Shown one piece after another: positions 1 through 38,408 of a stretch of DNA of 64,000 nucleotides (positions are counted from its first letter, which is position 1; each line of letters opens with the position of its first letter). The notes under the pieces are model-generated. The model made no database searches. It worked only from the letters and a program-made list of their open reading frames with translations, and was not told the DNA's origin. The position numbers and the translations under genes were made by a program. The stretch comes from Candidatus Omnitrophota bacterium (lineage in GTDB: Bacteria > Omnitrophota > Gorgyraeia > Gygaellales > Profunditerraquicolaceae), in NCBI GenBank assembly GCA_043798795.1, contig JAZDOJ010000007.1, positions 28,259 through 92,258 on the forward strand, given 5' to 3'.

Positions 1-1
1 T

Positions 2-262
2 GTGGTGACCGCTGTCAAGGTCCCTCAGGGTATAGACGGAGAGAAGCTGGTCAAGAGCATGCGGGACACCTATGGCGTGACCATCGCGGGCGGACAGTCG
101 GAAATGAAAGGAAAGATTTTTAGGATTGCCCACATGGGTTATATCGAAGAGTTTGATATCATTTTGGGCATCTCTTGTTTAGAAAAAGTGTTACATCAGA
201 TGGGATACAAGTTCTCTTTAGGCGCGGGCGTCAAGGCCGCAGAGGAAATTTTCTTGAAATAA
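2..262 (+). CDS. C-terminal fragment of a class-V aminotransferase (phosphoserine / serine-pyruvate aminotransferase-like); 5' end lies outside the window
   Basis: Translation [32 protein letters not shown] resembles the C-terminal small domain of class-V aminotransferases; serA lies immediately downstream (serC-serA style pairing). Confidence 0.6.
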
Positions 263-317
263 GGTTAGAAACAGGCATAAAGGTACCCTTAGGAATCTAT
301 TATAACGGGAGTCAAAG

Positions 318-1904
318 ATGATCAAAATATTAGTAAGTGATCCGCTGTCGGAAGAAGGCCTCAAAATACTTAAAGATCGTAAGGAATTTCAGGTGGACGT
401 CAAGACAGATTTAAAACCGGATGCCTTAAAGGAGGCTATTAAGGATTATGATGCCCTTGTGGTCAGGAGCGCCACAAAAGTGACCAAAGATGTCCTTTCT
501 CAGGCGGCCAAGTTAAAAGTGATCGGCCGCGCCGGTGTCGGTTTGGATAATGTTGATTTAGAGGCTGCCACGCAAAAAGGCATCATCGTGATGAATACGC
601 CTGGCGGAAATACCATCTCGACGGCAGAGCATACCATGAGCTTGATTTTAGCGCTCTCCAGGAATATCCCGCAGGCAGACGTCTCTACAAAAAAAGGAGA
701 ATGGGAGCGTTCCAAATTTATGGGTGTGGAGCTTTATGGCAAGGTCTTGGGTATCGTGGGGTTCGGCAGGATTGGTTCAGAGGTAGCCAGGCGTGCTTTG
801 TCTTTCGGCATGAAAGTTCTGGCTTTTGATCCGTTTTTATCCCGGGAGGTGGCTCAGGGGATTGGTGTCGAACTGGTGGAATTAAAAGAGGCCCTGGAGA
901 AGTGCGACTATATCACGGTGCACACGCCTTTAACCGAAGAGACAAAGCACATGATATCCGCGAAAGAATTTGCCATGATGAAGAAAGGCGTACGCGTGGT
1001 CAATTGCGCCCGCGGAGGGATTATTGATGAGTTGGCTCTGGTTGAGGCGATCAAAGAAGGCAAGGTCGCAGGGGCTGCTCTGGATGTGTTTGAAAAAGAA
1101 CCCCTTGCCGCGGATAGCCCGCTTTTACAAGTTGACAATATCATTTTAACGCCCCATCTAGGGGCCTCGACGGAAGAAGCACAAGTGAACGTGGCCGTTG
1201 AGGTGGCCCAGATCGTTGCGGATGCGCTTCTGGGAAAGGGTATCCGTAATGCCGCGAATTACCCTTGTTTGGAGCCGGAGGTTTGCAAGATCATCGAGCC
1301 CTATATCAACCTGGCGGAAAAACTGGGTGCTTTTGGCAGCCAGTTAGCGGAAGGCAGGCTTCTCCAGTTGAATATCTCTTACAGCGGAGATTTCATCCAG
1401 CATGATCTGACGGCTGTGACACTGGCCTTGGTGAAGGGCGTTCTTTCTCCTATTTTACAGGAAACAGTCAACTTTATCAATGCCGTAGCCCTTGCCAAAG
1501 AAAGAGGCATCAAGATCAATGAGTCGAAAACGTCCCAGGAAGGGGAGTTCGTCACCCTGATCCAATTGGAAGTTAAGACCGATAAAGAAACCAGGAAAAT
1601 ATCTGGGACTCTTGCCTCCAATAAGCAGCCCAGGATCGTTAAGATCGACGGATGTTACGTGGAGATGATGCCTCTGGGGGAGGTCGTTTTCATCCAGAAT
1701 TGGGATAAACCGGGTATCATCGGTAACCTGGGTTCGCTTTTAGGCAAGCATAATATCAATATTGCCTCTATGACGTTCGGACGCGAAAAACCGGGCGCCA
1801 AGGCGATCAGCGTATTGAATGTGGACAGCCCTGTCTCAGCGGAGATCGCAGATAAAATAAAGAAGCTGGAGAATATCCTGGCGGTCAAAGTGATTAAGTT
1901 ATAA
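318..1904 (+). CDS. serA: D-3-phosphoglycerate dehydrogenase (long form with ACT regulatory domain)
   Basis: 528 aa; NAD-binding Rossmann motif GxGxxG (GIVGFGRIGSEVARRA); 2-hydroxyacid dehydrogenase catalytic region; C-terminal ASB/ACT-like tail. Confidence 0.9.
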   Translation: MIKILVSDPLSEEGLKILKDRKEFQVDVKTDLKPDALKEAIKDYDALVVRSATKVTKDVLSQAAKLKVIGRAGVGLDNVDLEAATQKGIIVMNTPGGNTISTAEHTMSLILALSRNIPQADVSTKKGEWERSKFMGVELYGKVLGIVGFGRIGSEVARRALSFGMKVLAFDPFLSREVAQGIGVELVELKEALEKCDYITVHTPLTEETKHMISAKEFAMMKKGVRVVNCARGGIIDELALVEAIKEGKVAGAALDVFEKEPLAADSPLLQVDNIILTPHLGASTEEAQVNVAVEVAQIVADALLGKGIRNAANYPCLEPEVCKIIEPYINLAEKLGAFGSQLAEGRLLQLNISYSGDFIQHDLTAVTLALVKGVLSPILQETVNFINAVALAKERGIKINESKTSQEGEFVTLIQLEVKTDKETRKISGTLASNKQPRIVKIDGCYVEMMPLGEVVFIQNWDKPGIIGNLGSLLGKHNINIASMTFGREKPGAKAISVLNVDSPVSAEIADKIKKLENILAVKVIKL

Positions 1905-3649
1905 TGGGAAGTCAAAAAGTAATGAAATTTCACCTCTTTGCTCTTTGCTTTCTACTTTTTTGCGGTACGGCTTATGCCAAGGAAATCGTCATCCTTTACA
2001 CCGGCGAGACGCACGCCATGCTCTACCCCTGCAGCTGTCCGAAGGGGCCAGATGGGGGTCTTGCGCGTCGAGCTACCCTGATCAAAGAAATGAAGGCCCG
2101 ACATCCAGATGCCCTTCTTTTGGATGCTGGTGCTTTTTTTGCAGGAGGCCTGTTGGATGAGTATGCCCAGAATACCCAGCTTGATATGGAGCGCACTGCC
2201 GTCAATCTGGAAGCCATGAAGAAGATGGGGTATGATGCTGTGGCCATAGGAGACAACGAATTCAATTTCGGGGAAAGCTTCCTTTTTGACGCTATCAGCA
2301 AGACGAACCTTCCCTTTTTATCGTGCAATGTCAGGACGCAACAGGCCGAGGGGGTCAAACCGTTCATCATTAAAGATGTGTCGGGCACGAAGATCGGCAT
2401 CATCGGGGTTACGAATCTGGCGGCTCGTAATAAATCAGGGACCTTGCGTTTCAGCGAGCCGAAGCAGGCGGTGAAAAAGGCCGTAGAAGAACTTAAAAGT
2501 ACCGGCGCGGATATCATTGTCCTCTTGAGTCAATTGGCAGAAAACGATGACCTGAGTCTAATAGAAGAGATTAAGGGGATAGATGTTTTGATAGGCTCCC
2601 ATCATCCTTTTAAGGATCAAGCCTTCGTCAAGTTTGAGAATACGCTCCTTTTAAAAACATTCTGGCAAGGCAGAAATCTGGGTGTCGCCACTTTAACCGT
2701 TGAAAACAACGAGTTGACAGAGTTTAAGGTTAATGAGGTGCGGTTATCGGATGAGGTCGCAGACGATGCGGATATTCCGGAGATTCTCCCGCGTTGTTTT
2801 TCCGATCAAAATTGCAGGAGGCAAGGTCTGGCAGGATCCTGCCGGAATCCGGGTACGCCGGAAGCCGATTGTTTATTCAGTGCAGGGCAAAGAATCAGTC
2901 TCGTCGTTATTACAGATAAGTCTTGCGTGACCTGCAATCCGGATGCGGTGATCGACCTTTTGAAGAAGGATTTTCCGGGTCTTGAGCCTGCCTATCTGTA
3001 TTATCCTGAGAAAAAAGCAAAGGACCTGATCAAAGACTTTGATATTTCCAGTTTACCCGCCTATCTCTTAAGCAAAGAAGCTGAAAAAGAAGAGAGATTC
3101 GAGAGTCTCAGAGAGAACTTTCAGGCCCAGGGAGATTTCTATCTGGTCAAACCGACATACAGCGGCATTTCTTACCTTTTTAATAGAAAAAAAATAAAAG
3201 GACGGCTGGATTTATTTATAAGCCTCTACGATCAGAACGCCGAAAAGCTGCTGGAGGTGATTAAGGATTTTAATCCTCAGCTCCATTTTTTGGTTAAGCG
3301 GGATCAGGCAGGATTCGATGCAGCTCAAGGAGAGCCCGAGGTCGAAGAATATTTGCGTGTTGTGTGCGTCCAAAAACATTACCCCCAAAAATTCTGGGAG
3401 TATATCCGTTGCCGCTCGAAGAATATCCACAGCACCTGGTGGGACGATTGTGCCTCTGATTTGGATGCGCGTAAGATCAAAACCTGCGCTAAAGGAGCCG
3501 AAGGCACCTCGCTTTTAAAGGACTATATAGGATTGAGCGAAGAGCTTCGCATCCTTTTCGGTCCAACGTACCTTTTAAATAACCAGGAAATATTTGTTTC
3601 TAACGGTGTGCCTAGCAAAGAAGAGCTGGAGGCCATCATCCAGAAGTGA
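1904..3649 (+). CDS. Secreted/exported hypothetical protein: N-terminal 5'-nucleotidase/metallophosphoesterase-like domain with degenerate metal ligands, plus C-terminal thioredoxin/DsbA-like region (CVTC motif)
   Basis: Signal peptide (MKFHLFALCFLLFCGTAYA); calcineurin-like motifs present but mutated (YTGETH for xxNDxH, LLDAGAFFAGG for GDxxxxG, GDNEFNFG for GNHEFD); SCVTCNPD thioredoxin-like CxxC. Confidence 0.45.
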   Translation: MGSQKVMKFHLFALCFLLFCGTAYAKEIVILYTGETHAMLYPCSCPKGPDGGLARRATLIKEMKARHPDALLLDAGAFFAGGLLDEYAQNTQLDMERTAVNLEAMKKMGYDAVAIGDNEFNFGESFLFDAISKTNLPFLSCNVRTQQAEGVKPFIIKDVSGTKIGIIGVTNLAARNKSGTLRFSEPKQAVKKAVEELKSTGADIIVLLSQLAENDDLSLIEEIKGIDVLIGSHHPFKDQAFVKFENTLLLKTFWQGRNLGVATLTVENNELTEFKVNEVRLSDEVADDADIPEILPRCFSDQNCRRQGLAGSCRNPGTPEADCLFSAGQRISLVVITDKSCVTCNPDAVIDLLKKDFPGLEPAYLYYPEKKAKDLIKDFDISSLPAYLLSKEAEKEERFESLRENFQAQGDFYLVKPTYSGISYLFNRKKIKGRLDLFISLYDQNAEKLLEVIKDFNPQLHFLVKRDQAGFDAAQGEPEVEEYLRVVCVQKHYPQKFWEYIRCRSKNIHSTWWDDCASDLDARKIKTCAKGAEGTSLLKDYIGLSEELRILFGPTYLLNNQEIFVSNGVPSKEELEAIIQK

Positions 3650-3662
3650 GGAGGCAAGAGAG

Positions 3663-4901
3663 ATGACCGATCAACCCAGAATTCATATTATTGATGTGAC
3701 GAACCGCGACGGCGTACAGACGTCCCGTATCTGCTTATCCAAGCTGCAGAAGACCATGATCAACTTGTATCTGAATGAGATGGGCGTGTTTCAGTCAGAA
3801 TTCGGCTTTCCGGTGACGCGCCATGAAACGAACTATTTAAACGCCAACCTCGAGCTGGCAGGGAAAAAAGTCCTTTTGCCCATTCGTCTGGGAGGATGGC
3901 TCAGGGCTACCCCAGAAGACGTCAAGACGGCTTTTCGGCTTGTCCCAAAACTGAAGCACCTGAACCTTTCCATTTCCACCTCTGACCAGATGATAATCCA
4001 TAAATTTAAAGGCAAGCTTGATCATTCCTCAGTGATAAAAGAGATGAGAGAGGGTGTTAAGCATGCTATTCAACAGGGGTGCGAATCTGTCGGTGTCAAT
4101 GCGGAAGACGCCTCGCGCACGAAGATGGATTATCTGATCGAGTTCTCCTCTGCCGCCAAAGAAGCAGGGGCCATGCGCATCCGTTATTGCGATACCTTAG
4201 GTTGCGATACACCTTTTACGATATACGAAAGAATAAGGCTCTTGGCGGAAGCCGTTTCTTTGCCTATAGAGATTCACTGCCACAATGATTTAGGTTTGGT
4301 GGTAGCCAATTCTCTTGCTGGAGCCAAGGCTGCCTTGGATTGCGGTTGCAACGCCTACATCAATACCTGTGTTAACGGAATGGGGGAAAGAGCGGGTAAT
4401 GCAGACCTGGTTTCCGTGATCCTGGCCATAAAATACGGTAACGGCATGCAGGATTACCCGTTGAGCGGATCCGTCAATCTTAAAATGGCCTGGAAGATTT
4501 GCAAGTACGCCTCTTATGCCTTTGGTGTCCCCATTCCTATCAATCAGCCGGGAATTGGCACAAATGCCTTTGCCCATGAATCGGGCATCCATGCGGATGG
4601 CGCCCTGAAGGACAGGCGCAACTACGAACTTTACGATTTTGAAGAACTGGGACGGGGAGACCCCGAGATCATTGAGACGGGCCGCAAGATTACCGCCGGA
4701 GAATATTCAGGGATAAAGGGTTTTAGAAACGTTTACGAAAAGTTGGAGGTCGCATTCAAAGACGACAAACAGGCCACGGAAGTTCTGGAGCTGGTCCGAT
4801 ACGCCAATGTTCATAACCAAAAACCTTTGGTGGATGAGGAGCTCAGGTTCATTGCGAAGTATCCGGATATCGCGCGTAAGATTTTTATGATGGCGCCTTA
4901 A
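3663..4901 (+). CDS. 2-isopropylmalate synthase / homocitrate synthase / citramalate synthase family (DRE-TIM HMGL-like) enzyme, short form without LeuA regulatory domain
   Basis: IIDVTNRDGVQT pyruvate-carboxyltransferase N-terminus, HCHNDLGLVVANSLAGAKAA and GERAGNADL motifs; ~413 aa from the ATG at 3663 preceded by GAGGAGG. Confidence 0.8.
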   Translation: MTDQPRIHIIDVTNRDGVQTSRICLSKLQKTMINLYLNEMGVFQSEFGFPVTRHETNYLNANLELAGKKVLLPIRLGGWLRATPEDVKTAFRLVPKLKHLNLSISTSDQMIIHKFKGKLDHSSVIKEMREGVKHAIQQGCESVGVNAEDASRTKMDYLIEFSSAAKEAGAMRIRYCDTLGCDTPFTIYERIRLLAEAVSLPIEIHCHNDLGLVVANSLAGAKAALDCGCNAYINTCVNGMGERAGNADLVSVILAIKYGNGMQDYPLSGSVNLKMAWKICKYASYAFGVPIPINQPGIGTNAFAHESGIHADGALKDRRNYELYDFEELGRGDPEIIETGRKITAGEYSGIKGFRNVYEKLEVAFKDDKQATEVLELVRYANVHNQKPLVDEELRFIAKYPDIARKIFMMAP

Positions 4902-6182
<1,281 letters not shown>

Positions 6183-6195
6183 GGCCATAAAAGGC

Positions 6196-6224
6196 TTGAC
6201 TATCCCTGAGGCCTGTGTTATATT
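6196..6224 (+). promoter_or_regulatory. Sigma70-like promoter (TTGACT - 17 bp - TATATT) upstream of the OmpA-like gene
   Basis: Near-consensus -35/-10 hexamers with 17-bp spacing read directly from the sequence, about 30 nt upstream of the AAAGGAGAAGG RBS and the ATG at 6257. Confidence 0.55.
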
Positions 6225-6256
6225 GGTTGTGTTCAATTTTAAAAGGAGAAGGTAAG

Positions 6257-6889
6257 ATGAAAAGCAGAATACTGATGTTCTTGGTGGTAGGTTTTCTGGT
6301 CTTGGCTTTATCGGGTTGCACGTTTATTTTCCAAAAGGGCAGACGTTCCGACGTGGAGAAGATCGAAGAGCTTTCGACTCAGTTGGACGAACTCAACCGT
6401 GCGAAGAGGCTTCTTGAAGACAGGCTGAGCCAGGAAATCAAGGATAAGCAGGTTAAGCTGGAGATGTTAGAAAAGGGATTAGTGATTACCGTCGTGGGTG
6501 ACCTTTTGTTTGATTCGGGCAAAGCCAAGGTAAGGTCTGAGGCCTATTCGGTACTGGATAAGGTTTCTACCGTTTTACAGGAGAATCTCGCCAGTTACAA
6601 CGTGGGTATCGAGGGCCACACGGATGACCAACCTATTAAATATTCTGGCTGGAAATCCAACTGGGAATTATCTGCTCATCGGGCCCTCAGTGTTTTAAAT
6701 TATCTGGAGAAGGAAAAAGGCATTGCCGGTTTTCGCCTATCGGCTATAGGTTACGGAGAGCATCATCCCGTTGCGTCCAATGATTCGGCGCAAGGCCGTC
6801 AGCTCAACCGCCGCGTTGAAATCATCGTTTTGCCCAAGCATGAAGGGACGCGCTCCTCGAAAGGATCTGCGGCACCAAAAGTCAAGTAA
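6257..6889 (+). CDS. OmpA/MotB-family peptidoglycan-binding lipoprotein with N-terminal coiled coil
   Basis: Lipobox LALSGC; OmpA-like C-terminal domain (NRRVEIIV) with coiled-coil linker; ATG at 6257 with strong SD, so the track's 6215 start is probably too far upstream. Confidence 0.8.
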   Translation: MKSRILMFLVVGFLVLALSGCTFIFQKGRRSDVEKIEELSTQLDELNRAKRLLEDRLSQEIKDKQVKLEMLEKGLVITVVGDLLFDSGKAKVRSEAYSVLDKVSTVLQENLASYNVGIEGHTDDQPIKYSGWKSNWELSAHRALSVLNYLEKEKGIAGFRLSAIGYGEHHPVASNDSAQGRQLNRRVEIIVLPKHEGTRSSKGSAAPKVK

Positions 6890-6902
6890 CCAGAGGTAGG
6901 GT

Positions 6903-7307
6903 GTGGAGGAAAACGTAAAATCAAGGCTTATTTTGATTCTGGGGGTCATGACGGTTATATTCTTTATCAGCACGGTGAGCTCTTGCGGTAATGCCTACAG
7001 GAATAAAATGGGGCAGGTTAAAGAGACGTTACAGCGCAAGGCTCTGGAGGAAAAACTGAATTTGATATCTCAGGAGAAAGTGAACCAAGAAGAGAATCTG
7101 GCTAGCCTGCAGAAACAGCTGGATGACGAGAAGGCCGGTCATGAGGCGACTCAAAAAGCACTGGTACAGGAGCAGCTCGTTAATCAAAGTTTGAAGGAAG
7201 AGCTGGTTAAAGTTACTAAACTGAAAGAGGCCCTTGAAGAGGATTTGAAAGAAGCCTTGGTTCAAGGCAAAGGGTCTTCGGCCACGAGTACAAAACCAAG
7301 GCAATAG
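6903..7307 (+). CDS. Membrane-anchored or lipoprotein coiled-coil protein; function unknown
   Basis: Hydrophobic N-terminus ending in a VSSC lipobox-like motif, followed by about 100 aa of heptad-rich E/K/L/Q sequence; start codon uncertain (GTG 6903 or ATG 6948). Confidence 0.5.
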   Translation: MEENVKSRLILILGVMTVIFFISTVSSCGNAYRNKMGQVKETLQRKALEEKLNLISQEKVNQEENLASLQKQLDDEKAGHEATQKALVQEQLVNQSLKEELVKVTKLKEALEEDLKEALVQGKGSSATSTKPRQ

Positions 7308-7375
7308 AGAAAGCCAATCATTCTTTAAAAGATGAGATAGAGGAGGCAGCAAGAAGGAAAGTGTATTTTTGCAGG

Positions 7376-7400
7376 AAGGGGATTCAATCCCCTTTTTTAT
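7376..7400 (+). terminator. Rho-independent terminator after the coiled-coil gene
   Basis: AAGGGGA-TTCAA-TCCCCTT 7-bp stem followed by TTTTAT. Confidence 0.6.
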
Positions 7401-7421
7401 TAGCGAGGAGGGCAAGAGACC

Positions 7422-8417
7422 ATGGCGCTATTCCGTAAGATAAAACAAAAAATCAAAGACCTGGTACAAAAAGAAAAGGCAAAAAAACAAGAATCAAAAA
7501 GGGTTCGCAGGGCCGAATCCCAAGAAATAAAAAAAGAAATCCTGGGGGCCCAGGAGATGGCTGTCGAACAGACAAAGTTCTCGCACCCGGAAACAGCACC
7601 TTTTCGTCGCACTCCTCCGACGGATCTGCCTTACCAATACGACCGGGATAGAATGATTCTCCAGGTAAGGGATCCCCGCTGGCTCCACACTTATTGGGAA
7701 GTCGCACCCCCTACCATTGAGAGGCTTAAGAATGATCTGCGGGAGGACTTTTTTAACGCCAAAAGGGTCTTACGCGTTTACGATGTCAGCGACATCGTTT
7801 TTAACGGAGAGAATGCGCACAGCCTTTTTGATATCCAGGTCAACGAATTTGCCAACAACTGGTATATCAACACGCAAGGCCCTGACCGCTCCTGGTGCGT
7901 TGATTTTGGATTATTGCTTGCTTCGGGAAGATTCATTACGATTGTGCGATCGAACGTGGTGCGCACACCTTTAGAGGGGCCTTCCTGGATTACCGACGAA
8001 GAATGGATGATCCCTGACGATATGTTCGCGCGCCTATACGGGATGGGATTTGGGCTGGGTCGCAGTTCCCCTGTGGGAAAGGCCTGGCAGGAGAGAGTGA
8101 GACAGGTGCTTTTTTCAGGAGCTATGGCCTCACCCGGTATGGCCTCGATGGCCAGTCCTGTTAAAAAAGAACTCAAACAAAGAAAATTCTGGCTTTTAGT
8201 TGATTGCGAATTGATTGTCTACGGAGCCACGGAGCCGGGTGCCAAGGTTTCGGTCCAGGGCAAGGAGGTCGCTTTAAGGCCGGATGGGACCTTTACCTTA
8301 AGGTTTGCTTTGCCGGATGGCAGGCAGGTCATGCCAGTTAAAGCTGTATCCTGCGATAAAGTGGAAGAGCGCACGATCACGCCCATTGTTTCCAGAGAAA
8401 CGAAAATCAGCATTTAA
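7422..8417 (+). CDS. DUF4912-family protein, the usual partner of GH57 branching enzymes
   Basis: DPRWLHTYWEV signature typical of DUF4912; sits immediately upstream of the GH57 gene. Confidence 0.7.
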   Translation: MALFRKIKQKIKDLVQKEKAKKQESKRVRRAESQEIKKEILGAQEMAVEQTKFSHPETAPFRRTPPTDLPYQYDRDRMILQVRDPRWLHTYWEVAPPTIERLKNDLREDFFNAKRVLRVYDVSDIVFNGENAHSLFDIQVNEFANNWYINTQGPDRSWCVDFGLLLASGRFITIVRSNVVRTPLEGPSWITDEEWMIPDDMFARLYGMGFGLGRSSPVGKAWQERVRQVLFSGAMASPGMASMASPVKKELKQRKFWLLVDCELIVYGATEPGAKVSVQGKEVALRPDGTFTLRFALPDGRQVMPVKAVSCDKVEERTITPIVSRETKISI

Positions 8418-8429
8418 CCCCTATCAGAT

Positions 8430-10010
8430 ATGTTAAAAGGATATCTTTGTCTCGTCTTGCACGGCCACCTTCCGTTTGTACGTCATCCGGAACACGAAAA
8501 CTTTCTGGAAGAGGATTGGCTTTACGAAGCGATCACGGAGACCTACATTCCGTTGATCTCTTGTTTCGAGAGATTATGCGAAGAGAAAGTGGATTTCCGT
8601 CTCACCATGACGTTAAGCCCTACGCTGATCTCTATGTTGAACGATCCGCTTCTCCAGGAACGCTACCTGAAACATATCAACAGGCTTATTGAATTAGCGC
8701 ATAAAGAGATCGAGAGGACTTCCTGGCAGGCCGCCTTTCAGAAGTTGGCGATTATGTATTTAAATCAGTTCTGTAAGGCGCGGGATACCTTTGAAAGATA
8801 TAACCGTCAATTAGTCAAGGCATTCAAAAATTTTCAGGATCTGGGAAAAATAGAGATTGTGACATGTGCCGCGACGCACGGTTACTTTCCTCTTATGGAT
8901 GTATGCAGGGCGTCTGTCAGGGCCCAGGTCAAGGTAGCTGTCAGCCAGTATGAATCTGTGTTTGGCAGGAAGCCACGGGGGATATGGCTGCCGGAATGCG
9001 GGTATCATCCCGGCCATGATGAGATTTTAAAGGAGGCCGGGATACGCTATTTCTTCAGTGATGCGCATGGGGTTTTACACGGCACCCCCAGGCCCAAATA
9101 CGGTGTATTTGCTCCGGTCTATTGCAAGGGTACGGGTGTCGCCTGTTTTGGTAGAGATCTGGAATCATCGAAACAGGTATGGAGTTCTATCGAAGGGTAT
9201 CCGGGTGATTATAATTACCGGGAATTTTATCGCGATATCGGTTTTGATCTGGAGTTCGATTACATCAGGCCCTACATCCATCCTGACGGTGTCCGGATCA
9301 ATACGGGGATCAAATATTACCGCATCACCGGCAACCAGAGTCCTAAGGAACCCTATGTCCCGGAATGGGCCACAGAGACGGCGGCTTCTCATGCCGGAAA
9401 TTTCATGTTCAATCGCCAAAAGCAGGCCGCGTACCTTTACGACTTTATGCAAAAACCGCCGATGTTCGTCTCTCCTTATGATGCCGAGCTGTTCGGCCAT
9501 TGGTGGTACGAAGGCCCCCAGTGGCTGGATTTTTTGATGAGAAAGATCGTCTTTGACCAGGATGAGTTGCGTCTTATCACTCCTTCGGAATATTTGGCCC
9601 AGAACCCGCGCCACCAGGTGATCACGCCCTCTTTATCCAGCTGGGGGTGGAAGGGATATAGCGAAATGTGGCTTCAGGGTTCCAATGACTGGATTTATCG
9701 GCATCTGCATGTGGCCTCTGACAGAATGACGGAATTAGCGAAAAGCTTCCCTCAGACGGATGGTTTGCTCAGAAGGGCCTTGAACCAGGCCTTGTGTGAG
9801 CTGCTTCTTGCCCAGAGTTCTGATTGGGCGTTCATCATGGGCACAGGAACGCATACGAGTTATGCGGTACGCCGCACCAAAGAACATCTCTTGAGATTCA
9901 GCCGCCTTTACGAAGATATCAAATCCAGCAGCATAGACCCAAACTGGTTATCCGATATCGAATACAAAGATAACCTATTTCCTAAAATAGATTACCGGGT
10001 CCATCAATAA
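8430..10010 (+). CDS. Glycoside hydrolase family 57 1,4-alpha-glucan branching enzyme
   Basis: LCLVLHGHLPFVRHPE N-terminal GH57 motif; 526 aa; Glu/Asp catalytic regions of GH57 present. Confidence 0.8.
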   Translation: MLKGYLCLVLHGHLPFVRHPEHENFLEEDWLYEAITETYIPLISCFERLCEEKVDFRLTMTLSPTLISMLNDPLLQERYLKHINRLIELAHKEIERTSWQAAFQKLAIMYLNQFCKARDTFERYNRQLVKAFKNFQDLGKIEIVTCAATHGYFPLMDVCRASVRAQVKVAVSQYESVFGRKPRGIWLPECGYHPGHDEILKEAGIRYFFSDAHGVLHGTPRPKYGVFAPVYCKGTGVACFGRDLESSKQVWSSIEGYPGDYNYREFYRDIGFDLEFDYIRPYIHPDGVRINTGIKYYRITGNQSPKEPYVPEWATETAASHAGNFMFNRQKQAAYLYDFMQKPPMFVSPYDAELFGHWWYEGPQWLDFLMRKIVFDQDELRLITPSEYLAQNPRHQVITPSLSSWGWKGYSEMWLQGSNDWIYRHLHVASDRMTELAKSFPQTDGLLRRALNQALCELLLAQSSDWAFIMGTGTHTSYAVRRTKEHLLRFSRLYEDIKSSSIDPNWLSDIEYKDNLFPKIDYRVHQ

Positions 10011-10018
10011 AACTCAAT

Positions 10019-10738
10019 ATGATAGACAAAGATAATCTTCCCAGGCATGTCGCTATCATCATGGACGGGAACGGCCGCTGGGCCAAAGAAAAAGGTTTGC
10101 CGCGTACAGCAGGTCACCGGGAAGGTATAAAACGCGTCCGGGAGATCGTTAAAGCGGCGGCAAAACGGGGGATTGAGGTGGTCACTTTTTTTGCTTTTTC
10201 TACAGAAAACTGGAGCCGGCCGAAGAAGGAAGTCGACATGCTGATACGTTCTCTGAAATTTTTTTTAGACCGCGAAGTCAAGGAATTAAACAAGAACAAT
10301 GTTCGGTTGAAGATCGTCGGCCGGCTGGCCCCCATCCCTGAGAGCCTGCTGAAGAAAGTAAGGGAAGCTGAGCACCTGACCCAAGAGAATACCGGCATCA
10401 CCATGGTCTTGGCTTTGAATTACGGTTCAAGGCAGGAGATATTGGATGCTGCTAAGAAATTCGCCGGTCAGGTCTTGTCGCAAGAAGTAACGATAGACGA
10501 TTTAAACGAAGAAAGGTTTAGCCAATACCTTTACACGGCGGGCCTGCCGGACCCGGATCTGTTGATCCGCACCAGCGGCGAGATGCGAATAAGCAATTTT
10601 CTGCTCTGGCAGCTCTCTTATGCCGAGCTTTATTTTCCTAAAAAATATTGGCCTGATTTTAAAGAAGAAGAACTTTCCAGGGCCCTGGAAGCTTACCAGA
10701 AACGAGAAAGAAGATTTGGCGGTATCCATGCAGACTAG
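10019..10738 (+). CDS. uppS: Undecaprenyl-diphosphate synthase (cis-prenyltransferase)
   Basis: HVAIIMDGNGRWA and RTSGEMRISNFLLWQ motifs. Confidence 0.95.
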   Translation: MIDKDNLPRHVAIIMDGNGRWAKEKGLPRTAGHREGIKRVREIVKAAAKRGIEVVTFFAFSTENWSRPKKEVDMLIRSLKFFLDREVKELNKNNVRLKIVGRLAPIPESLLKKVREAEHLTQENTGITMVLALNYGSRQEILDAAKKFAGQVLSQEVTIDDLNEERFSQYLYTAGLPDPDLLIRTSGEMRISNFLLWQLSYAELYFPKKYWPDFKEEELSRALEAYQKRERRFGGIHAD

Positions 10739-11522
10739 ACGAATCGTAAGTTCTGTCCTTCTTATCGCCCTCATCATTGTCGGGATTCAGATCGACTGGC
10801 TCTGCGGTCTCCTGGTCGCTTTATTTATCATCGGGGGGCTTTACGAATTCTTTACCATGCTGGAGCACAAAGGGATCAGCCTGTATAAATATTGCGGGAT
10901 AGGTATCGGCGCTATCATTCCTTTTTCCTTGATCTTTCGTTTTGAACTCACCAAGAGCTGGGAGTTGCTGTTTATCGTTTTGGCATTGTTGTTTCTCATT
11001 CTTATGCAGTTTCGGCGCAGAGAGAACTCAGGGGTGATCGTGGGAATTTCCACGACACTCTTCGGCATCCTCTATGTCTCCTGGTTCTTGAGTTTCCTTA
11101 TCAAGATAAGGTATCTGGCAGGAGGGCTGGGTTTGATCAGCAGCATCCTGTTGATTACCAAATTAGGCGATATCGGGGCGTATCTGGTGGGCTCGCGATT
11201 CGGTAAAAGGCCTCTTATTCCGCGCATCAGTCCCAACAAATCCGTCGAAGGGGCCTTAGGGGGATTGATTTTTAGTATCCTGGGGGCCTTGCTGAGCAGA
11301 GCCTTCTTAGGTTTTGCTTACGGACATCTTTTTTTCCTGGGTCTTTTTTTTGGGCTCTTAAGCCAATTAGGGGATTTGTCCGAGTCACTGATGAAGCGGG
11401 ATTGCCAGGTTAAGGATTCAGGATCGATCTTTCCTGGCTTGGGAGGCGCCTTGGATTCGGTGGACAGTCTCCTGTTTACGGCCCCTGTTTTTTATTTTTA
11501 CATGAGTATCATTTTAAAATGA
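10728..11522 (+). CDS. cdsA: Phosphatidate cytidylyltransferase
   Basis: Polytopic membrane protein with the CDS signature near the C-terminus (KRDxxVKDSGSIFPGHGGxLDRxDS-like); ATG at 10728 overlaps the uppS stop. Confidence 0.85.
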   Translation: MQTRRIVSSVLLIALIIVGIQIDWLCGLLVALFIIGGLYEFFTMLEHKGISLYKYCGIGIGAIIPFSLIFRFELTKSWELLFIVLALLFLILMQFRRRENSGVIVGISTTLFGILYVSWFLSFLIKIRYLAGGLGLISSILLITKLGDIGAYLVGSRFGKRPLIPRISPNKSVEGALGGLIFSILGALLSRAFLGFAYGHLFFLGLFFGLLSQLGDLSESLMKRDCQVKDSGSIFPGLGGALDSVDSLLFTAPVFYFYMSIILK

Positions 11523-29821: not shown

Positions 29822-30194
29822 AAGAAGCGTATGCCTGGGGCAAAATGGGGAAGATTTAGCTGTTGGCTTCCTGAAAGAAAACGGTTATAAGATTCTGCAT
29901 AGAAATTTTAAAACCAGGTTGGGAGAGATAGATATCATCGGCATGGATCAGGATACACTTTGTTTCATCGAAGTCAAAACTAGGAACTCTCTCAGGTGCG
30001 GCGAGCCGCAAGAGGCTATTTCTTCTTTTAAGCAGAGGCAGATGTCCAAAGCAGCGCTCCTGTTTCTTAAAGGACATCATCTTCTGGATGCTAAAGCCAG
30101 GTTCGATGTGGTTTCCGTTATCTGTTTAGATAAAACGCCAACATTCGATTTGATCAAGAATGCTTTTGAACTGGAGGCAAGCTATGTTATCTGA
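29814..30194 (+). CDS. yraN: YraN-family (UPF0102) endonuclease
   Basis: GEDLAVGFLKENGYKILHRNFKTRLGEIDIIGMDQDTLCFIEVKTR signature. Confidence 0.85.
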   Translation: MSKRSVCLGQNGEDLAVGFLKENGYKILHRNFKTRLGEIDIIGMDQDTLCFIEVKTRNSLRCGEPQEAISSFKQRQMSKAALLFLKGHHLLDAKARFDVVSVICLDKTPTFDLIKNAFELEASYVI

Positions 30195-31878
30195 TATCAA
30201 AATTGCCCAGAAAGCAAAAATAGTCCCGATAGAGAATATCGCCAAGAAATTAAAAATCGATAAACGATTCCTTGTGCCTTACGGCCGGCATATGGCCAAG
30301 ATCGATTTGGGTATTCTGGATAAAATTAAGAATAGGAAATCAGGAAAATATGTTTTGGTAACCGCTATAACACCCACGCCTTTAGGAGAAGGCAAGACCG
30401 TCACGACCATAGGTCTCTCCATGGCTTTGAATCGATTAGGTCGGTTAACCTCAACCTGCATCAGGCAGCCGTCGCTGGGGCCTGTCTTTGGTATAAAAGG
30501 AGGGGCAGCTGGCGGTGGGTATTCCCAGGTTTTGCCCATGGAGAATTTTAATCTTCATTTTACCGGAGACGTGCATGCGGTTGGCCTGGCGCATAATCTG
30601 GCTGCTGCTTTTTTGGATAATTCTCTCTTCAAAGGAAACAAGCTCGGGATCGATCCCGAGCAGATAACCTGGAGACGGGTGGTAGATGTCAGCGACCGCT
30701 CTTTAAGGAATGTCAAGATCGGTTTGGGCTCAAAAGACGACGGGGTTCCCCGGGACAGCGGCTTTGATATAACGGTGGCTTCCGAAATCATGGCTATTTT
30801 GGCCTTGAGTTCCGGTTTAACGGACTTGCGTAAACGTCTGGGGCAAATCGTCGTGGCCCATACCCAGGACGGCAGACTCGTCACCTGTGAAGACCTGCAA
30901 GTGGCCGGGGCCATGGCTGTTCTCATGAAAGAGGCCATAAAACCTAATTTGATTCAGACGATCGAAAATACCCCTTGTTTTGTGCACGCCGGCCCTTTTG
31001 CGAATATCGCCCATGGCAATAACTCCATATTAGAGGACCGCATAGCTCTGAGGTTATCCGAGTATGTGGTGACAGAAGCCGGCTTTGGAGCGGATTGCGG
31101 GGCAGAGAAATTCTTTGATATAAAATGTCGCGCAAGCGGCCTGGCGCCTCATGCCGTAGCCATGGTCTGTTCTGTCAGGGCTTTAAAAGCGCATAGCGGC
31201 CGATTTAAGGTTGTCGCGGGTAAACCTTTAGATCCAGCTTTAACGCAAGAGAACTTAGATGCTATAGAGGAAGGAGTTTGTAACCTGCAGAAACAGATTG
31301 AGAATGTTTCTCTCTTTGGTGTACCGGTGGTGGTTGCCGTCAATCGATTTACCTCTGATACAAAAAGAGAAATAGAATTTGTAAGGAAAAAAGCCCTGGA
31401 GTTCGGAGCCTTTGACTGTTGTGTCAGCGAAGTATGGGCCAAGGGTTCCTCAGGAGGTCTGGAGCTGGCTAAGAGCATCATGGCCGCAGCCAAAGAGAAG
31501 AGCCGTTTTAAATTTCTATATCCGTTAGATATTTCCATAAAGGAGAAGATCGAAACCATCGCGACAAAAATATACGGGGCCAAGAATGTCGAATATGCAG
31601 GCCTGGCTGAGGAGAAAATTAAGGTTTACACAGAGCAGGGTTATGATAGACTACCTATCTGTATGGCCAAAACACACCTTTCTTTATCGCATGACCCTCA
31701 CCTTAAAGGAAGGCCTCGAGATTTTACGCTTCCCATCAGAGATATCCGGGCATCCATCGGTGCAGGATTTTTATATCCTCTTTGTGGGGAAATGAAAACC
31801 ATGCCGGCGCTGCCCAGCCACCCTGCAGGAGAGAAGATTGATATCGACAAGAGTGGGAATATTGTGGGTTTATCATGA
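30184..31878 (+). CDS. fhs: Formate--tetrahydrofolate ligase
   Basis: MLSDIKIAQKAKI start, PTPLGEGKTVTTIGL P-loop, 560+ aa typical of FTHFS. Confidence 0.95.
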   Translation: MLSDIKIAQKAKIVPIENIAKKLKIDKRFLVPYGRHMAKIDLGILDKIKNRKSGKYVLVTAITPTPLGEGKTVTTIGLSMALNRLGRLTSTCIRQPSLGPVFGIKGGAAGGGYSQVLPMENFNLHFTGDVHAVGLAHNLAAAFLDNSLFKGNKLGIDPEQITWRRVVDVSDRSLRNVKIGLGSKDDGVPRDSGFDITVASEIMAILALSSGLTDLRKRLGQIVVAHTQDGRLVTCEDLQVAGAMAVLMKEAIKPNLIQTIENTPCFVHAGPFANIAHGNNSILEDRIALRLSEYVVTEAGFGADCGAEKFFDIKCRASGLAPHAVAMVCSVRALKAHSGRFKVVAGKPLDPALTQENLDAIEEGVCNLQKQIENVSLFGVPVVVAVNRFTSDTKREIEFVRKKALEFGAFDCCVSEVWAKGSSGGLELAKSIMAAAKEKSRFKFLYPLDISIKEKIETIATKIYGAKNVEYAGLAEEKIKVYTEQGYDRLPICMAKTHLSLSHDPHLKGRPRDFTLPIRDIRASIGAGFLYPLCGEMKTMPALPSHPAGEKIDIDKSGNIVGLS

Positions 31879-34775: not shown

Positions 34776-36683
34776 ATGTCAAATATCGAGCAGAAATCAA
34801 TAGATTTAGCGACTCTGGAAGTTTTAAAAAAAGCCCAGGAGGAAAGCATCAAGACGACGTGGGATCGTCTGGAAGCGCAGCAGCCGCAGTGCGGATTCGG
34901 ACAGCTGGGCGTTTGCTGCACGGTCTGTAGCATGGGGCCTTGCCGCATTGACCCTTTTGGCGAGGGGGCTCAGGTCGGCGTGTGCGGGGCCAATGCCGAT
35001 ACCATTGCCGCAAGAAACCTGGCGCGTAAGATCGCTGTCGGTGCTTCAGCGCATTCAGACCACGGCCGGGATGTGGCGCATACCCTTTCTTTGTTATCTG
35101 AGGGGCACGCGCATGATTACGATATAACCGATATCACAAAATTCAAGAGTTTGGCCGAGGAGTTCCAAATTGACGTCAATAAACCTAAAGAGGAAATTCT
35201 CAAAGAGCTTTCCCAAAAATTGCTGCAGGAATTCGGAAAGCAGGAAGGAGAGTTGACCTTTATAAAACGGGCTCCCAAGAAGCGCCAGCAGATCTGGAAG
35301 AAATTGGGCATCACGCCTCGTGGCATTGACAGAGAAATCGTCGAGTTATTGCATACGACACATATGGGCGTGGATAACGATTATAAGAATCTTATGCTCA
35401 CAGGGATGCGTTGCGCTTTATCCGACGGTTGGGGAGGTTCCATGGTTGCCACGGACGTTCAGGATGTCATCTTAGGCAGTCCGCAACCCATAAGAGGCAA
35501 GGTCAATCTGGGCGTATTAAAAGAAGACTATGTCAATATCGTGGTGCATGGTCACGAACCGATTTTATCTGAGATGGCTGTTAAAGTCAGCCAGGATCCG
35601 GAATTGTTAAAGTTAGCCAAAGGCCTGGGTGCCGAAGGGATCAATTTGGCAGGTATCTGTTGCACGGCGAATGAGGTGCTGATGCGTCATGGCATTTCTG
35701 TGGTCGGTAACTTCTTGCAGCAGGAATTAGCGATTATTACGGGTGCGGTTGAACTGATGATGGTGGATGTGCAGTGTATCATGCCGGCCTTGCAGGAAAC
35801 GTCAGCCTGTTTTCACACGAAACTGGTCACCACGAGTCCCAAGGCGCGTTTTCCCGGAGTCACCCACATCGAATTTGAATCAAAAAGCGCTTATGAGGTG
35901 GCCAAACAGATTATCAAGATGGGTGTCGAGAATTTTGCCAACCGCAATAAAGCAAGAGTGAATATCCCAAAACAGGAGATGGATCTGGTGGCGGGTTTCA
36001 CCAAGGAGATCATCTTCCAGATTTTAGGGGGAAGGTACAGGGCAACCTACAAGCCGTTAAATGAAGCGATTATTTCCGGCAGGCTGCGCGGTTTAGCAGG
36101 GGTGGTGGGGTGCAATAATCCCAAACAGACGCACGATTATTTTCATACGGAGCTGGTAAAAGAACTGATTAAGAATGATGTCCTGGTTTTACAGACAGGC
36201 TGTGCTGCGATTGCCTGCGCAAAACAAGGTTTACTCATCCCGGAAGCAGCCAAAGAATACGCCGGGAAAGGCTTACAGGAAATATGCGAAGCCGTAGGAA
36301 TCCCGCCTGTGCTGCACCTTGGCTCTTGCGTGGATAATTCCCGGATTTTAACCGCAGCCTCATACATTATTCAGGAAGGCGGCCTGGGAGAAGATTTATC
36401 AGATATCCCTGCAGCAGGATGCGCTCCGGAATGGATGTCCGAGAAGGCCATCACCATCGGTTTCTATTTCATGGCCTCAGGAGTTTACACGATCTTTGGA
36501 GCCAGTCCCTTTGCTACTCTGGGCAGCAAAAATTTAACGGATTATCTGACCAAAGAGATAGAAGGGGTGGTGGGCGCAAGATTCGAATTCTGCGATGACC
36601 CTCTGGAGATGGCCAAGCTTATGATCGCGCATATTGACAAAAAACGCCAAGCGTTGAAATTGAAACCTGTGATGTACGCGTAA
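34776..36683 (+). CDS. cooS: Anaerobic Ni-dependent carbon monoxide dehydrogenase catalytic subunit (CooS/AcsA)
   Basis: CGFGQLGVCCTVCSMGPCRI B/D-cluster cysteine motif; 635 aa; C-cluster ligand regions present. Confidence 0.95.
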   Translation: MSNIEQKSIDLATLEVLKKAQEESIKTTWDRLEAQQPQCGFGQLGVCCTVCSMGPCRIDPFGEGAQVGVCGANADTIAARNLARKIAVGASAHSDHGRDVAHTLSLLSEGHAHDYDITDITKFKSLAEEFQIDVNKPKEEILKELSQKLLQEFGKQEGELTFIKRAPKKRQQIWKKLGITPRGIDREIVELLHTTHMGVDNDYKNLMLTGMRCALSDGWGGSMVATDVQDVILGSPQPIRGKVNLGVLKEDYVNIVVHGHEPILSEMAVKVSQDPELLKLAKGLGAEGINLAGICCTANEVLMRHGISVVGNFLQQELAIITGAVELMMVDVQCIMPALQETSACFHTKLVTTSPKARFPGVTHIEFESKSAYEVAKQIIKMGVENFANRNKARVNIPKQEMDLVAGFTKEIIFQILGGRYRATYKPLNEAIISGRLRGLAGVVGCNNPKQTHDYFHTELVKELIKNDVLVLQTGCAAIACAKQGLLIPEAAKEYAGKGLQEICEAVGIPPVLHLGSCVDNSRILTAASYIIQEGGLGEDLSDIPAAGCAPEWMSEKAITIGFYFMASGVYTIFGASPFATLGSKNLTDYLTKEIEGVVGARFEFCDDPLEMAKLMIAHIDKKRQALKLKPVMYA

Positions 36684-37146: not shown

Positions 37147-38408
37147 AGCATTTTATTATTATCGGTAATTCTGCGGCGGGGATCGCGGCGGCGGAGCAGA
37201 TCCGCAAAATCGACGCGCAATCTCAGCTGACCATGATCTCCGATGAGGAATATCCTTCTTACTGCCGCTGTCTGATTTCGTATTATTTGGCCGCAGAGGT
37301 TAAAGAAGAGAAGATGTTCTATCGGGGGAAGAGTTTTTATAAGGAAAACAATATCGAACTCCTCCTGGGGAAGAAAGTGGCGAGGGTGGATGCGAAGAAG
37401 AATCGCGTTATCCTCGAAGATAAGACGGCCTTGGGCTTTGACGCCCTTCTCATCGCAACAGGCTCAAGCCCTAAATTTCCGCAGACCGCCGGGATCAAAA
37501 AGACAGGCGTATTCGGTTTCCGGACCCTTAAGAACGCCAAAGATATTGAAGGCCTGCTTCCGGTCACTAAGTCCGCCTGCGTGTTGGGGGGAGGCCTTGT
37601 GGGGCTTAAAGCCGCGTATGCGCTCAAAAAAAGAAACGTGGATGTGAAGGTCATCGTGAAGTCCAAGCAGGTCTTATCGCAGATGCTTGATTTTGAAGCA
37701 GCTTCTTTCGTCCTGAAGAGATTAGAAGAGAACGGGATTGAGGTTCTTTTGGGACAGGACGCCGAGGAGATTATCGGTAACGGAGACATCAAAGCCGTCA
37801 AGCTCGATTCAGGAAAAGCCCTGGGTTGTTCTCTGATAGTCGTCGGCAAGGGGGTGGCCCCGAATATCGACTTAGTCAAGGAGAGCGATATAAAATTTAA
37901 CGAAGGGATCCTCTCGGATGAGTTTTTGAGGAGCAATATCCCCTCTGTTTATGCGGCAGGAGACGTTTGCGAAAGCTTTGACCTGACGCTGGGCGAGCAC
38001 ACCGTTAATGCCCTCTGGCCGATAGCCGTTGAACAGGGCAGGATCGCCGGGCAGAATATGGCTGGAGAGAAAATAAAATATGACGGGTCCCTGGGTATCA
38101 ATTCTATCGAATTCTTTGGTTTGCCGGTTATCTCTTTAGGCATATACAAAAAGAAGGAAGGAGAGGCTGGCTTCGAGGAGATGAAGACAGCAGATGAAAA
38201 GAACAATCTTTATAAAAGAGTGCTCTTAAAAAATAACATCATCGTGGGCACCCTCCTGGTGGGTGATATAAAAAATAGCGGTATTTTCTTAAGACTGATG
38301 AGAGAACGTCTCGATGTCAGGCCCGTTAAAGAGAGATTGCTCAGTGAAGGCTTTGGATATCCGGATATCATTGACTTAGTGAAAGAGAAGGAGAAGATTT
38401 ATGTCTAA
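37143..38408 (+). CDS. FAD-dependent pyridine nucleotide-disulfide oxidoreductase (CODH-associated NAD(P)H oxidoreductase-like)
   Basis: IIIGNSAAGIAAAEQI FAD-binding motif and a second GGGLVGLKAA NAD-binding motif; ATGA overlap with cooF; this protein family is commonly encoded next to cooS-cooF. Confidence 0.8.
   Translation: MKHFIIIGNSAAGIAAAEQIRKIDAQSQLTMISDEEYPSYCRCLISYYLAAEVKEEKMFYRGKSFYKENNIELLLGKKVARVDAKKNRVILEDKTALGFDALLIATGSSPKFPQTAGIKKTGVFGFRTLKNAKDIEGLLPVTKSACVLGGGLVGLKAAYALKKRNVDVKVIVKSKQVLSQMLDFEAASFVLKRLEENGIEVLLGQDAEEIIGNGDIKAVKLDSGKALGCSLIVVGKGVAPNIDLVKESDIKFNEGILSDEFLRSNIPSVYAAGDVCESFDLTLGEHTVNALWPIAVEQGRIAGQNMAGEKIKYDGSLGINSIEFFGLPVISLGIYKKKEGEAGFEEMKTADEKNNLYKRVLLKNNIIVGTLLVGDIKNSGIFLRLMRERLDVRPVKERLLSEGFGYPDIIDLVKEKEKIYV

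Follow-up and report, generated by a model that had tools for sequence, protein, structure and literature searches.

A Cys-x-Cys loop in a degenerate 5'-nucleotidase-like protein of Omnitrophota, and its possible role in thiol redox chemistry

The DNA analysed here, referred to as the window, is a stretch of 64,000 nucleotides from a Candidatus Omnitrophota bacterium (contig JAZDOJ010000007.1, positions 28,259 to 92,258 of the forward strand). Our subject is a single gene near its left end, whose product combines a predicted signal peptide, a 5'-nucleotidase-like N-terminal domain (the N-domain) that has lost its phosphoesterase site, and a C-terminal half made of thioredoxin (Trx)-like modules. 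Close behind the first of the former catalytic motifs is an invariant Cys-x-Cys (CxC) loop. The features of the gene are as follows.

1904..3649, + strand: the whole gene, an open reading frame (ORF) of 581 aa in the ORF listing.
1904..1978, + strand: Sec-type signal peptide, residues 1-25, MGSQKVMKFHLFALCFLLFCGTAYA, read from the sequence, with predicted cleavage between AYA and KE.
1979..2779, + strand: degenerate 5'-nucleotidase/SoxB-type metallophosphoesterase (MPE) domain, residues 26-292, from phmmer, Foldseek and the NF041198 profile.
2000..2014, + strand: former motif I, T33-G-E-T-H37, with position 35 variable and T36 and H37 invariant.
2018..2059, + strand: invariant loop M39-L-Y41-P-C43-S-C45-P46...D50-G51-G52, from orthologs, AlphaFold2 (AF2) and comparison with NF041198.
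2123..2176, + strand: former motif II, D74-A-G-A77, and a family-specific loop, G82-L-L-D85-E86-Y87-A-Q-N-T; the bridging Asp is gone.
2249..2269, + strand: former motif III, G116-D-N-E119-F-N121-F122, from alignment and orthologs.
2789..2884, + strand: Cys4 beta-hairpin linker, residues 296-327 (P-R-C298-FSDQN-C304-...-C313-...-C323), from AF2 and orthologs.
2885..3178, + strand: thioredoxin/glutaredoxin-like domain, residues 328-425, with C341-V-T-C344 and a cis-Pro candidate, P385.
3191..3646, + strand: GILT/DsbA-like domain, residues 430-581, a Trx fold with a helical insert.

The ORF has the coordinates given in the initial annotation. Its first ATG shares one base (taATGg) with the stop of the D-3-phosphoglycerate dehydrogenase gene that lies upstream. 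NCBI starts instead at a second ATG (nt 1922, Met7), which is preceded by GGGAAG, and enters the identical protein (P0001, 575 aa) as 'MAG: metallophosphatase [Candidatus Omnitrophota bacterium]'. Residues 7-25, MKFHLFALCFLLFCGTAYA, have by eye the appearance of a classical Sec signal peptide. The alanine at position -1 of the predicted cleavage site (A25) is invariant, and the pattern x-[YFS]-A, followed after the cut by [KQ]-E, recurs among orthologs. Neither a lipobox nor a twin-arginine motif was seen when the signal-peptide region was read by eye. Judged from this conserved signal peptide, the protein is predicted to be exported via Sec, in agreement with the periplasmic or secreted location first assigned to it. 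Pfam gave nothing above cut-off for the whole protein or for its C-terminal pieces, and no paralog of either half was found elsewhere in the window.

The fold of the N-domain is clear, even though it has no match to Pfam PF00149. In a phmmer search of the PDB, residues 28-234 align to the Thermus 5'-nucleotidase 2z1a (E 4.8e-23), and the N-domain also aligns with CD73, UshA and CpdB-type enzymes. Foldseek, run on the full-length AF2 model (mean pLDDT 83.8, as against 72.7 when the C-terminal half was modelled alone), again found 2z1a (E 1.6e-22) and CD73 (E about 3e-20). The domain is an alpha/beta sandwich with motifs I-V in order, as in the 5'-nucleotidase/UshA/CD73/CpdB branch (PDB 2z1a, 1ush, 4h2i), and it shares with that branch a GGxARR helix cap after the first loop. 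It differs in having neither the metal ligands nor the catalytic dyad, and in having a D-E-Y insertion after motif II. The C-terminal substrate-binding domain of 5'-nucleotidases is also absent: there is no Pfam match for it, and the C-terminal half folds as Trx-like and GILT/DsbA-like domains.

The alignment with 2z1a gives the details of the loss. Motif I is TGETHA in place of TNDTHA (Asp to Glu), motif II is LDAGAFFAG in place of LDAGDVFQG (the bridging Asp to Ala), motif III is GDNEF in place of GNHEF (Asn to Asp and the catalytic His to Asn), and LSQ stands where the enzyme has LSH. Put another way, where D-x-H, G-D, G-N-H-E, H and G-H-x-H are expected, the protein has E-x-H, G-A, G-D-N-E...N, Q and S-H-H. 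Motif III keeps neither the Asn-His pair nor the Asp of the His-Asp dyad, other residues standing in their place; E119, N121 and F122 are near-invariant.

The same positions were examined in 105 orthologs, comprising 29 database proteins and 76 genes extracted from species-representative genomes. The former ligand positions are not merely substituted but differ from one ortholog to the next, the main residues and their counts being as follows.

Position 35: E47, Q20, D15, S9, N9.
Position 77: G37, N25, A19, S13, D6, R5.
Position 117: D64, P12, S12.
Position 118: D81, E12, N7.
Position 210: H38, N23, T18, Q13.
Position 233: H52, Y14, Q11.
Position 235: R41, P28.

Six of the seven metal-ligand or catalytic positions considered are unconserved, and among these former sites only H37 is invariant. 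Since the ligand positions vary throughout the orthologs, the catalytic degeneracy holds for the whole family, and the N-domain is dead as a phosphoesterase. The initial annotation had quoted YTGETH (residues 32-37), GAFFAGG (76-82) and GDNEF (116-120) as motifs with substituted ligands in a 5'-nucleotidase-like domain, and this description is borne out on every point: the motifs are as quoted, the ligands are not conserved, and the fold is that of the 5'-nucleotidases.

The most conserved stretch of the protein follows directly after motif I, and had been overlooked. It reads T36-H37-x-M39-x-Y41-x-C43-x-C45-P46 (the loop THAMLYPCxCP), and both C43 and C45, encoded with the intervening serine by TGC AGC TGT at nt 2030-2038, are present in 105/105 orthologs. 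The loop after motif II, an 8-residue insertion relative to 2z1a, is also conserved, G82 and D85 being invariant and E86 and Y87 being found in about 90% of the orthologs. Altogether, 33 N-domain positions are conserved at 97% or more, and 24 of these lie within the 66 residues that follow former motifs I-III (hypergeometric p about 5e-10, a descriptive value, as the windows were picked post hoc). AF2 gives pLDDT below 50 for both residues 42-50, the CxC loop, and residues 82-88, the motif II loop, which fits family-specific loops that may be mobile or ligand-dependent.

The relation between the Cys pair and the old catalytic site was followed through 159 N-domains with the loop covered, taken from 150 cluster representatives. 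CxC without an intact GNH is found in 110 of them, and GNH without CxC in 39; ten have neither, and none has both (the CxC counts include the C-x-x-C of deep-branching members of type A, defined below). CxC and an intact Asn-His are thus mutually exclusive, and gain of the Cys pair goes together with loss of phosphoesterase catalysis.

A second line of evidence comes from selenoproteins. The best NCBIfam match of the protein is NF041198, 'UshA-like (seleno)protein' (UshA_like_PCGU), with 155.4 bits over residues 23-272 and profile positions 19-274 of 519; this is below the 275-bit cut-off. The next best, SoxB (TIGR04486), scores 86.5 bits, far below its cut-off of 550. Selenoproteome reviews list UshA-like selenoproteins by their CxU motif and give no function for them (PMC13188914, PMC9312934, PMC2398784).

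Two loci show where the selenocysteine (Sec, U) lies. At L087, whose protein carries the NCBI product name 'UshA-like (seleno)protein', a 44-aa ORF and a 447-aa ORF form one frame joined by TGA, with the in-frame reading ...LLYSNDVHGETAPCG, TGA, KSRQLGGLSKKAY (APCG-TGA-KSRQLGG). At L091 the in-frame reading is ...FVGDEIGYLEPCG, TGA, KSKPIGGIARRAT (EPCG-TGA-KSKPIGG). When these are aligned with the studied protein (LYTGETHAMLYPCSCPKGPDGGLARRAT) on the downstream motif GG-x-(A/S)-(R/K), Sec falls on C45, and on this alignment C45 is positionally identical to the Sec of the NF041198 relatives. Both families have a signal peptide, a Cys-x-Cys/Sec in the same loop, 6-8 residues past the His position of motif I, and the same losses, namely the Asp of motif II and the Asn-His of motif III. 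They differ in that the studied protein has Cys and not Sec, and in the C-terminal half, which in NF041198 is a tetraheme cytochrome c554 (4 x CxxCH) and here is Cys4-Trx-GILT-like with no CxxCH. As it fails the cut-off and has no cytochrome domain, the studied family is not a member of NF041198; it forms a sister subfamily of Cys type whose redox modules are different.

Gene callers split or truncate the UshA-like selenoprotein genes at the in-frame TGA (L087 2854-4344; L091 about 6800-8134). Many homologs of 344-390 aa have no N-terminal part of the search query (about 67-73% coverage), and may reflect the same truncation.

The C-terminal half begins with the Cys4 hairpin, whose four cysteines (C298, C304, C313 and C323) are retained in every architecture in which the module was detected. 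The next domain is modelled by AF2 with a strand at 331-338, C341-x-x-C344 leading into the N-terminus of a helix at 346-356, L384-P385 and a strand at 386-390. It has no Pfam match; a family profile of the C-terminal half matches thioredoxin h (1wmj) weakly (E 0.0011), in an alignment that pairs CxxC with CGPC and LP with the cis-Pro MP. CxxC and cis-Pro are conserved in 104/105 orthologs. The last domain has the Trx fold with an inserted helical domain seen in GILT (PDB 6nwx) and in the DsbA family (3bci, 3eu3 and others). It differs from these in having no active-site Cys, S440-L-Y-D-Q-N-A446 standing in that place (S-L-Y-D-(Q/K)-N-(A/T) in close orthologs), and it has no match to Pfam DSBA or GILT. 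G553-P554 lies just before its strand beta3, and its helical insert carries four clade-specific cysteines, C488, C503, C516 and C528. The CVTC motif and the second Trx-like region of the initial annotation thus correspond to residues 341-344 of a Trx-like fold and to the GILT/DsbA-like domain.

To place the protein among its relatives, an exhaustive HMMER search was made with the N-domain, giving 13,463 representatives at E <= 1e-3, about 3,900 at E <= 1e-10 and 144 at E <= 1e-30. The top 150 were scored with our own HMMs of the four modules of the protein. NF041198-like proteins and canonical multi-domain 5'-nucleotidase-like proteins form two separate groups among them, and three further architectures are seen.

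Type A: N-Cys4-Trx-GILT-like, about 575-600 aa, the type of the studied protein.
Type B: N-GILT-like-Cys4-Trx-GILT-like, about 750-800 aa, one member being named Latescibacterota.
Type C: type B followed by a second N-domain, about 1,200 aa (P0124, P0140, P0142).

The extra GILT-like domain of types B and C carries 'DLY(I/V)MSxCPYG', with CPYC in P0153 and P0166 and CIHC in P0142; we take this to resemble the active-site region of GILT. The three type C proteins are type B proteins fused to a four-heme cytochrome unit of NF041198 type. Four CxxCH motifs and the tetraheme Pfam domain Cytochrome_C554 are present in P0259 (59.5 bits), in the NF041198 member P0345 and in 16/16 inspected homologs of P0259, and in P0269 and P0229 the cytochrome is inserted between the N-domain and the GILT-like domain. 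P0256 (named Edwardsbacteria, 800 aa) has a CHC-type N-domain, two thioredoxin domains with CAEC and CPHC (27.9 bits to Pfam Thioredoxin) and a polytopic membrane portion. The likeness of this portion to CcdA/DsbD is weak and no more than a lead: there was no Pfam match, BLASTP against a DsbD_TM protein gave E 0.008, and the NCBIfam match was a weak one to ArsG. The recurring theme of the partners of the CxC domain is the supply or removal of electrons. P0250, an Omnitrophota protein of 780 aa, has a CxxC-type MPE-like domain (loop A-C-p-T-C-P) and a DUF1573/OS_HP2 (seleno)protein-like domain.

On the basis of these observations we propose that the protein is a neofunctionalised periplasmic thiol oxidoreductase, in which a CxC redox centre would exchange electrons with the Trx-like CxxC. 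We put the probability of this reading, which is drawn from sequence comparison, at about 0.45. In outline, the N-domain descends from MPEs of 5'-nucleotidase/SoxB type and has lost the dimetal and His-Asp apparatus, and the same pocket now holds the invariant H37...C43-x-C45 loop and the D85-E-Y insertion. C43 and C45 would form a redox-active dithiol/disulfide centre, in which C45 is the proposed attacking residue because Sec is found at that position in the sister family. The Trx-like C341-x-x-C344 would swap reducing equivalents with this centre in cis, and the Cys-less GILT/DsbA-like domain and the Cys4 hairpin may be scaffolds or modules that bind a substrate or partner. It is the redox activity, the direction of electron flow (reductase or oxidase) and the interdomain relay in cis that we infer. 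The conservation of the pocket loops, the presence of CxC at the CxU position and the mutual exclusion of CxC and Asn-His all argue for a new active site rather than decay. Redox chemistry is further favoured by the joining of CxC-type domains to alternative redox modules, by the DsbD_TM and Redoxin genes behind one selenoprotein gene, and by the CxxC and cis-Pro of the Trx-like domain.

There are precedents for the parts of this proposal. SoxB is a periplasmic MPE acting on cysteine-bound sulfur species of a carrier protein, and so provides a precedent for the fold in sulfur chemistry. Among curated families it ranks second for the studied protein, and also for those CxC-type relatives that were checked apart from P0151 and P0259; it differs in being a dimanganese hydrolase, whereas the studied protein lacks those ligands. 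CxC shuttle disulfides are known from Erv2 (CGC) and Mia40 (CPC), and offer an analogy for a CxC on a probably flexible loop. A CxxC Trx-fold domain beside a Cys-less one recalls, in function only, the catalytic 'a' and non-catalytic 'b' domains of PDI. PDI, Erv2 and Mia40 have no MPE domain, and the likeness is meant purely as a functional analogy.

Several observations weigh against this proposal. The Trx CxxC is missing in 10/56 type A and 29/33 type B/C representatives that keep the CxC of the N-domain, so that a cis relay via C341/C344 is not a universal mechanism. The position of the CxC loop is predicted by AF2 with low confidence. Two cysteines are visible in the equivalent loop of an aligned venom 5'-nucleotidase, and the loop cysteines of vertebrate 5'-nucleotidases presumably form a structural disulfide (Cys51-Cys57 in CD73). 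The gene context in Omnitrophota is a housekeeping block and uninformative as to function. DsbD_TM and Redoxin neighbours at L091 could equally serve cytochrome c maturation. In a separate comparison, no clean co-variation, which would have shown coupling, was found between loss of the N-domain CxC and loss of the Trx CxxC. Since many relatives do without the Trx CxxC, what the superfamily conserves at its core is the CxC domain together with the Cys4-Trx-fold scaffold. The thiol partner itself can apparently be exchanged, being the Trx CxxC in most Omnitrophota, a GILT-like CPYG or CPYC elsewhere, and hemes in NF041198.

The neighbours just mentioned are DsbD_TM (CcdA-like) and Redoxin/AhpC-TSA genes at L091 8230-9512, directly 3' of the Sec-containing UshA-like cytochrome gene and on the same strand. 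Gene context was also uninformative for the type C protein P0124, the type B protein P0273 and the Cys-type cytochrome relative P0349.

The same data could be read as a pure pseudo-enzyme, an MPE binding platform in which the twelve conserved cysteines are all structural disulfides and which acts as a chaperone or ligand binder with no redox chemistry; inactive MPE folds do serve as scaffolds, for example in Vps29 and the polymerase B subunits. The catalytic residues are indeed gone, the four clade-specific cysteines of the GILT insert look structural, the GILT-like domain has no active-site Cys, and many relatives dispense with the Trx CxxC. Nevertheless we regard this as unlikely, given that the equivalent residue is Sec in the sister family, that conservation peaks in the old active-site loops, and that cytochromes, as well as Trx-fold domains that have their active-site Cys, are recurrent fusion partners of CxC domains. 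Sec is, to our knowledge, used at redox or metal-ligand sites and not in structural disulfides, and a CxC disulfide is a strained ring, unusual as a structural bond. The 'pseudo-enzyme scaffold' of the initial annotation is accordingly not the best reading, with 24 of the 33 invariant N-domain residues in the former motif loops and CxC at the CxU position. Its suggestion of a 'redox-linked binding protein' survives in part: the redox link is plausible, whereas the binding protein sits poorly with an invariant CxC at the CxU position and a conserved pocket.

Also improbable is a thiolate-rich site for a soft metal (Cu(I), Zn, Ni) or for sulfur or selenium species, formed by H37, M39, C43 and C45 and perhaps also by D74, D85 or E119, which would make the protein a periplasmic metallochaperone, sensor or carrier. 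The composition H-x-M-x-Y-x-C-x-C, in a pocket that bound metal in the ancestor, would suit such a site, and type B relatives, which keep E35, H37, D117, H210 and H233, could still accommodate a single metal; in other enzymes Sec can act as a metal ligand. However, divergent orthologs that keep the Cys pair have substitutions at M39 (A, S, N or T) and H37 (Y, N or F), there are no metal-handling genes nearby, and the cytochrome and Trx fusions fit electron transfer better. A residual phosphoesterase with non-canonical ligands (E35, H37, D74, D117, E119, H233) is highly improbable: the fold is intact and several former ligand positions of the protein hold acidic or His residues, but position 35 is Q, S, N, T, G or L in 43/105 orthologs, position 233 is Y, Q, R, G, S or N in many, the bridging Asp and Asn-His are absent, and the nucleotide-binding C-terminal domain of 5'-nucleotidases is missing.

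If the protein is a thiol oxidoreductase as we propose, an enzyme fold has switched its chemistry from dimetal hydrolysis to thiol or selenol redox, and has not simply died. For the UshA-like selenoproteins, which have appeared in selenoproteome surveys since 2008 without a function, it would provide a hypothesis to work with. In the literature library searched we found no paper on the protein family in Omnitrophota or on the metallophosphoesterase-cytochrome selenoprotein architecture. The superfamily that contains the protein is wider than the family itself and so far defined only bioinformatically. More tentatively, the CxC/CxU MPE-like domain may represent an unrecognised class of extracytoplasmic Cys/Sec oxidoreductases with interchangeable electron-input modules (Trx/GILT-like, tetraheme cytochrome c, possibly a membrane thiol transporter), the Omnitrophota version being a core and possibly essential envelope gene; its substrate might be, for example, sulfur or selenium species or protein-bound persulfides. 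The fusion series, with Trx/GILT-like modules, cytochrome c554 or both, yields directly testable predictions. The evolutionary story is clean, and from it we infer the function.

The domain combination, at first thought unusual, is not rare. It is represented by more than 600 protein clusters, and in a scan of one genome per species relatives were found in 153 species-level genomes, all apparently Omnitrophota. In the best 80 of the 153 they are full-length and 47-56% identical; these 80 are metagenome-assembled genomes (MAGs) of Omnitrophota, or MAGs labelled 'uncultured Planctomycetales' or 'Patescibacteria' with Omnitrophota synteny. In essentially all of 83 loci the gene lies between serA and a gene for a HMGL/homocitrate-synthase-like (HCS-like) protein, with serC upstream and purA downstream, and an ortholog of only 34% identity with a C-g-x-C loop is likewise found between serA and purA. 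The neighbouring genes are about 75-85% identical, and far more conserved than the gene itself. It is therefore a phylum-wide Omnitrophota ortholog in a fixed block, serC-serA-X-HCS-like-purA, where X is the studied gene. Because it occurs beside serA, always in the same position, in all the Omnitrophota loci examined, it is a candidate for a core function of the envelope in this phylum, of which no cultured representative has been well studied.

The syntenic block extends beyond these genes (window 1-11522; L001, L003, L086). To the left it reads (kdsA-SIS/CBS-HAD-lptC-ABC-tig-clpP)-serC-serA-X, and to the right X-HCS-like-purA-OmpA-like-small ORF-DUF4912-GH57 branching enzyme-uppS-cdsA; it persists even where X is only about 34% identical. 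The gene at window 3594-4901 has a listed TTG start, at 3594, that overlaps the end of the studied gene. Its homologs begin about 5-15 nt past the stop, matching an ATG near 3663 (MTDQPRIHIID...). A gene at window 6903-7307 encodes a 134-aa protein that has no Pfam match, a hydrophobic segment at its N-terminus and a high content of Glu, Lys, Leu and Gln; it adjoins the DUF4912 gene (7422-8417), both being just upstream of the GH57 branching enzyme, and the pairing is kept in other Omnitrophota loci.

In the 64 kb window as a whole no tRNA and no Rfam family was found. The real-looking ORFs of at least 180 aa are all on the + strand (50 of the 54 listed, the four on the minus strand being shadows inside plus-strand genes), and GC skew is positive throughout. 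Genes at 30160-31878, 34776-36683 and 38401-40581 encode a formate-tetrahydrofolate (THF) ligase, a protein of the Prismane/CO-dehydrogenase (CODH) family and an acetyl-CoA synthase (ACS)/CODH beta subunit. Since the window encodes formate-THF ligase, CODH and ACS, the organism is probably a Wood-Ljungdahl anaerobe.

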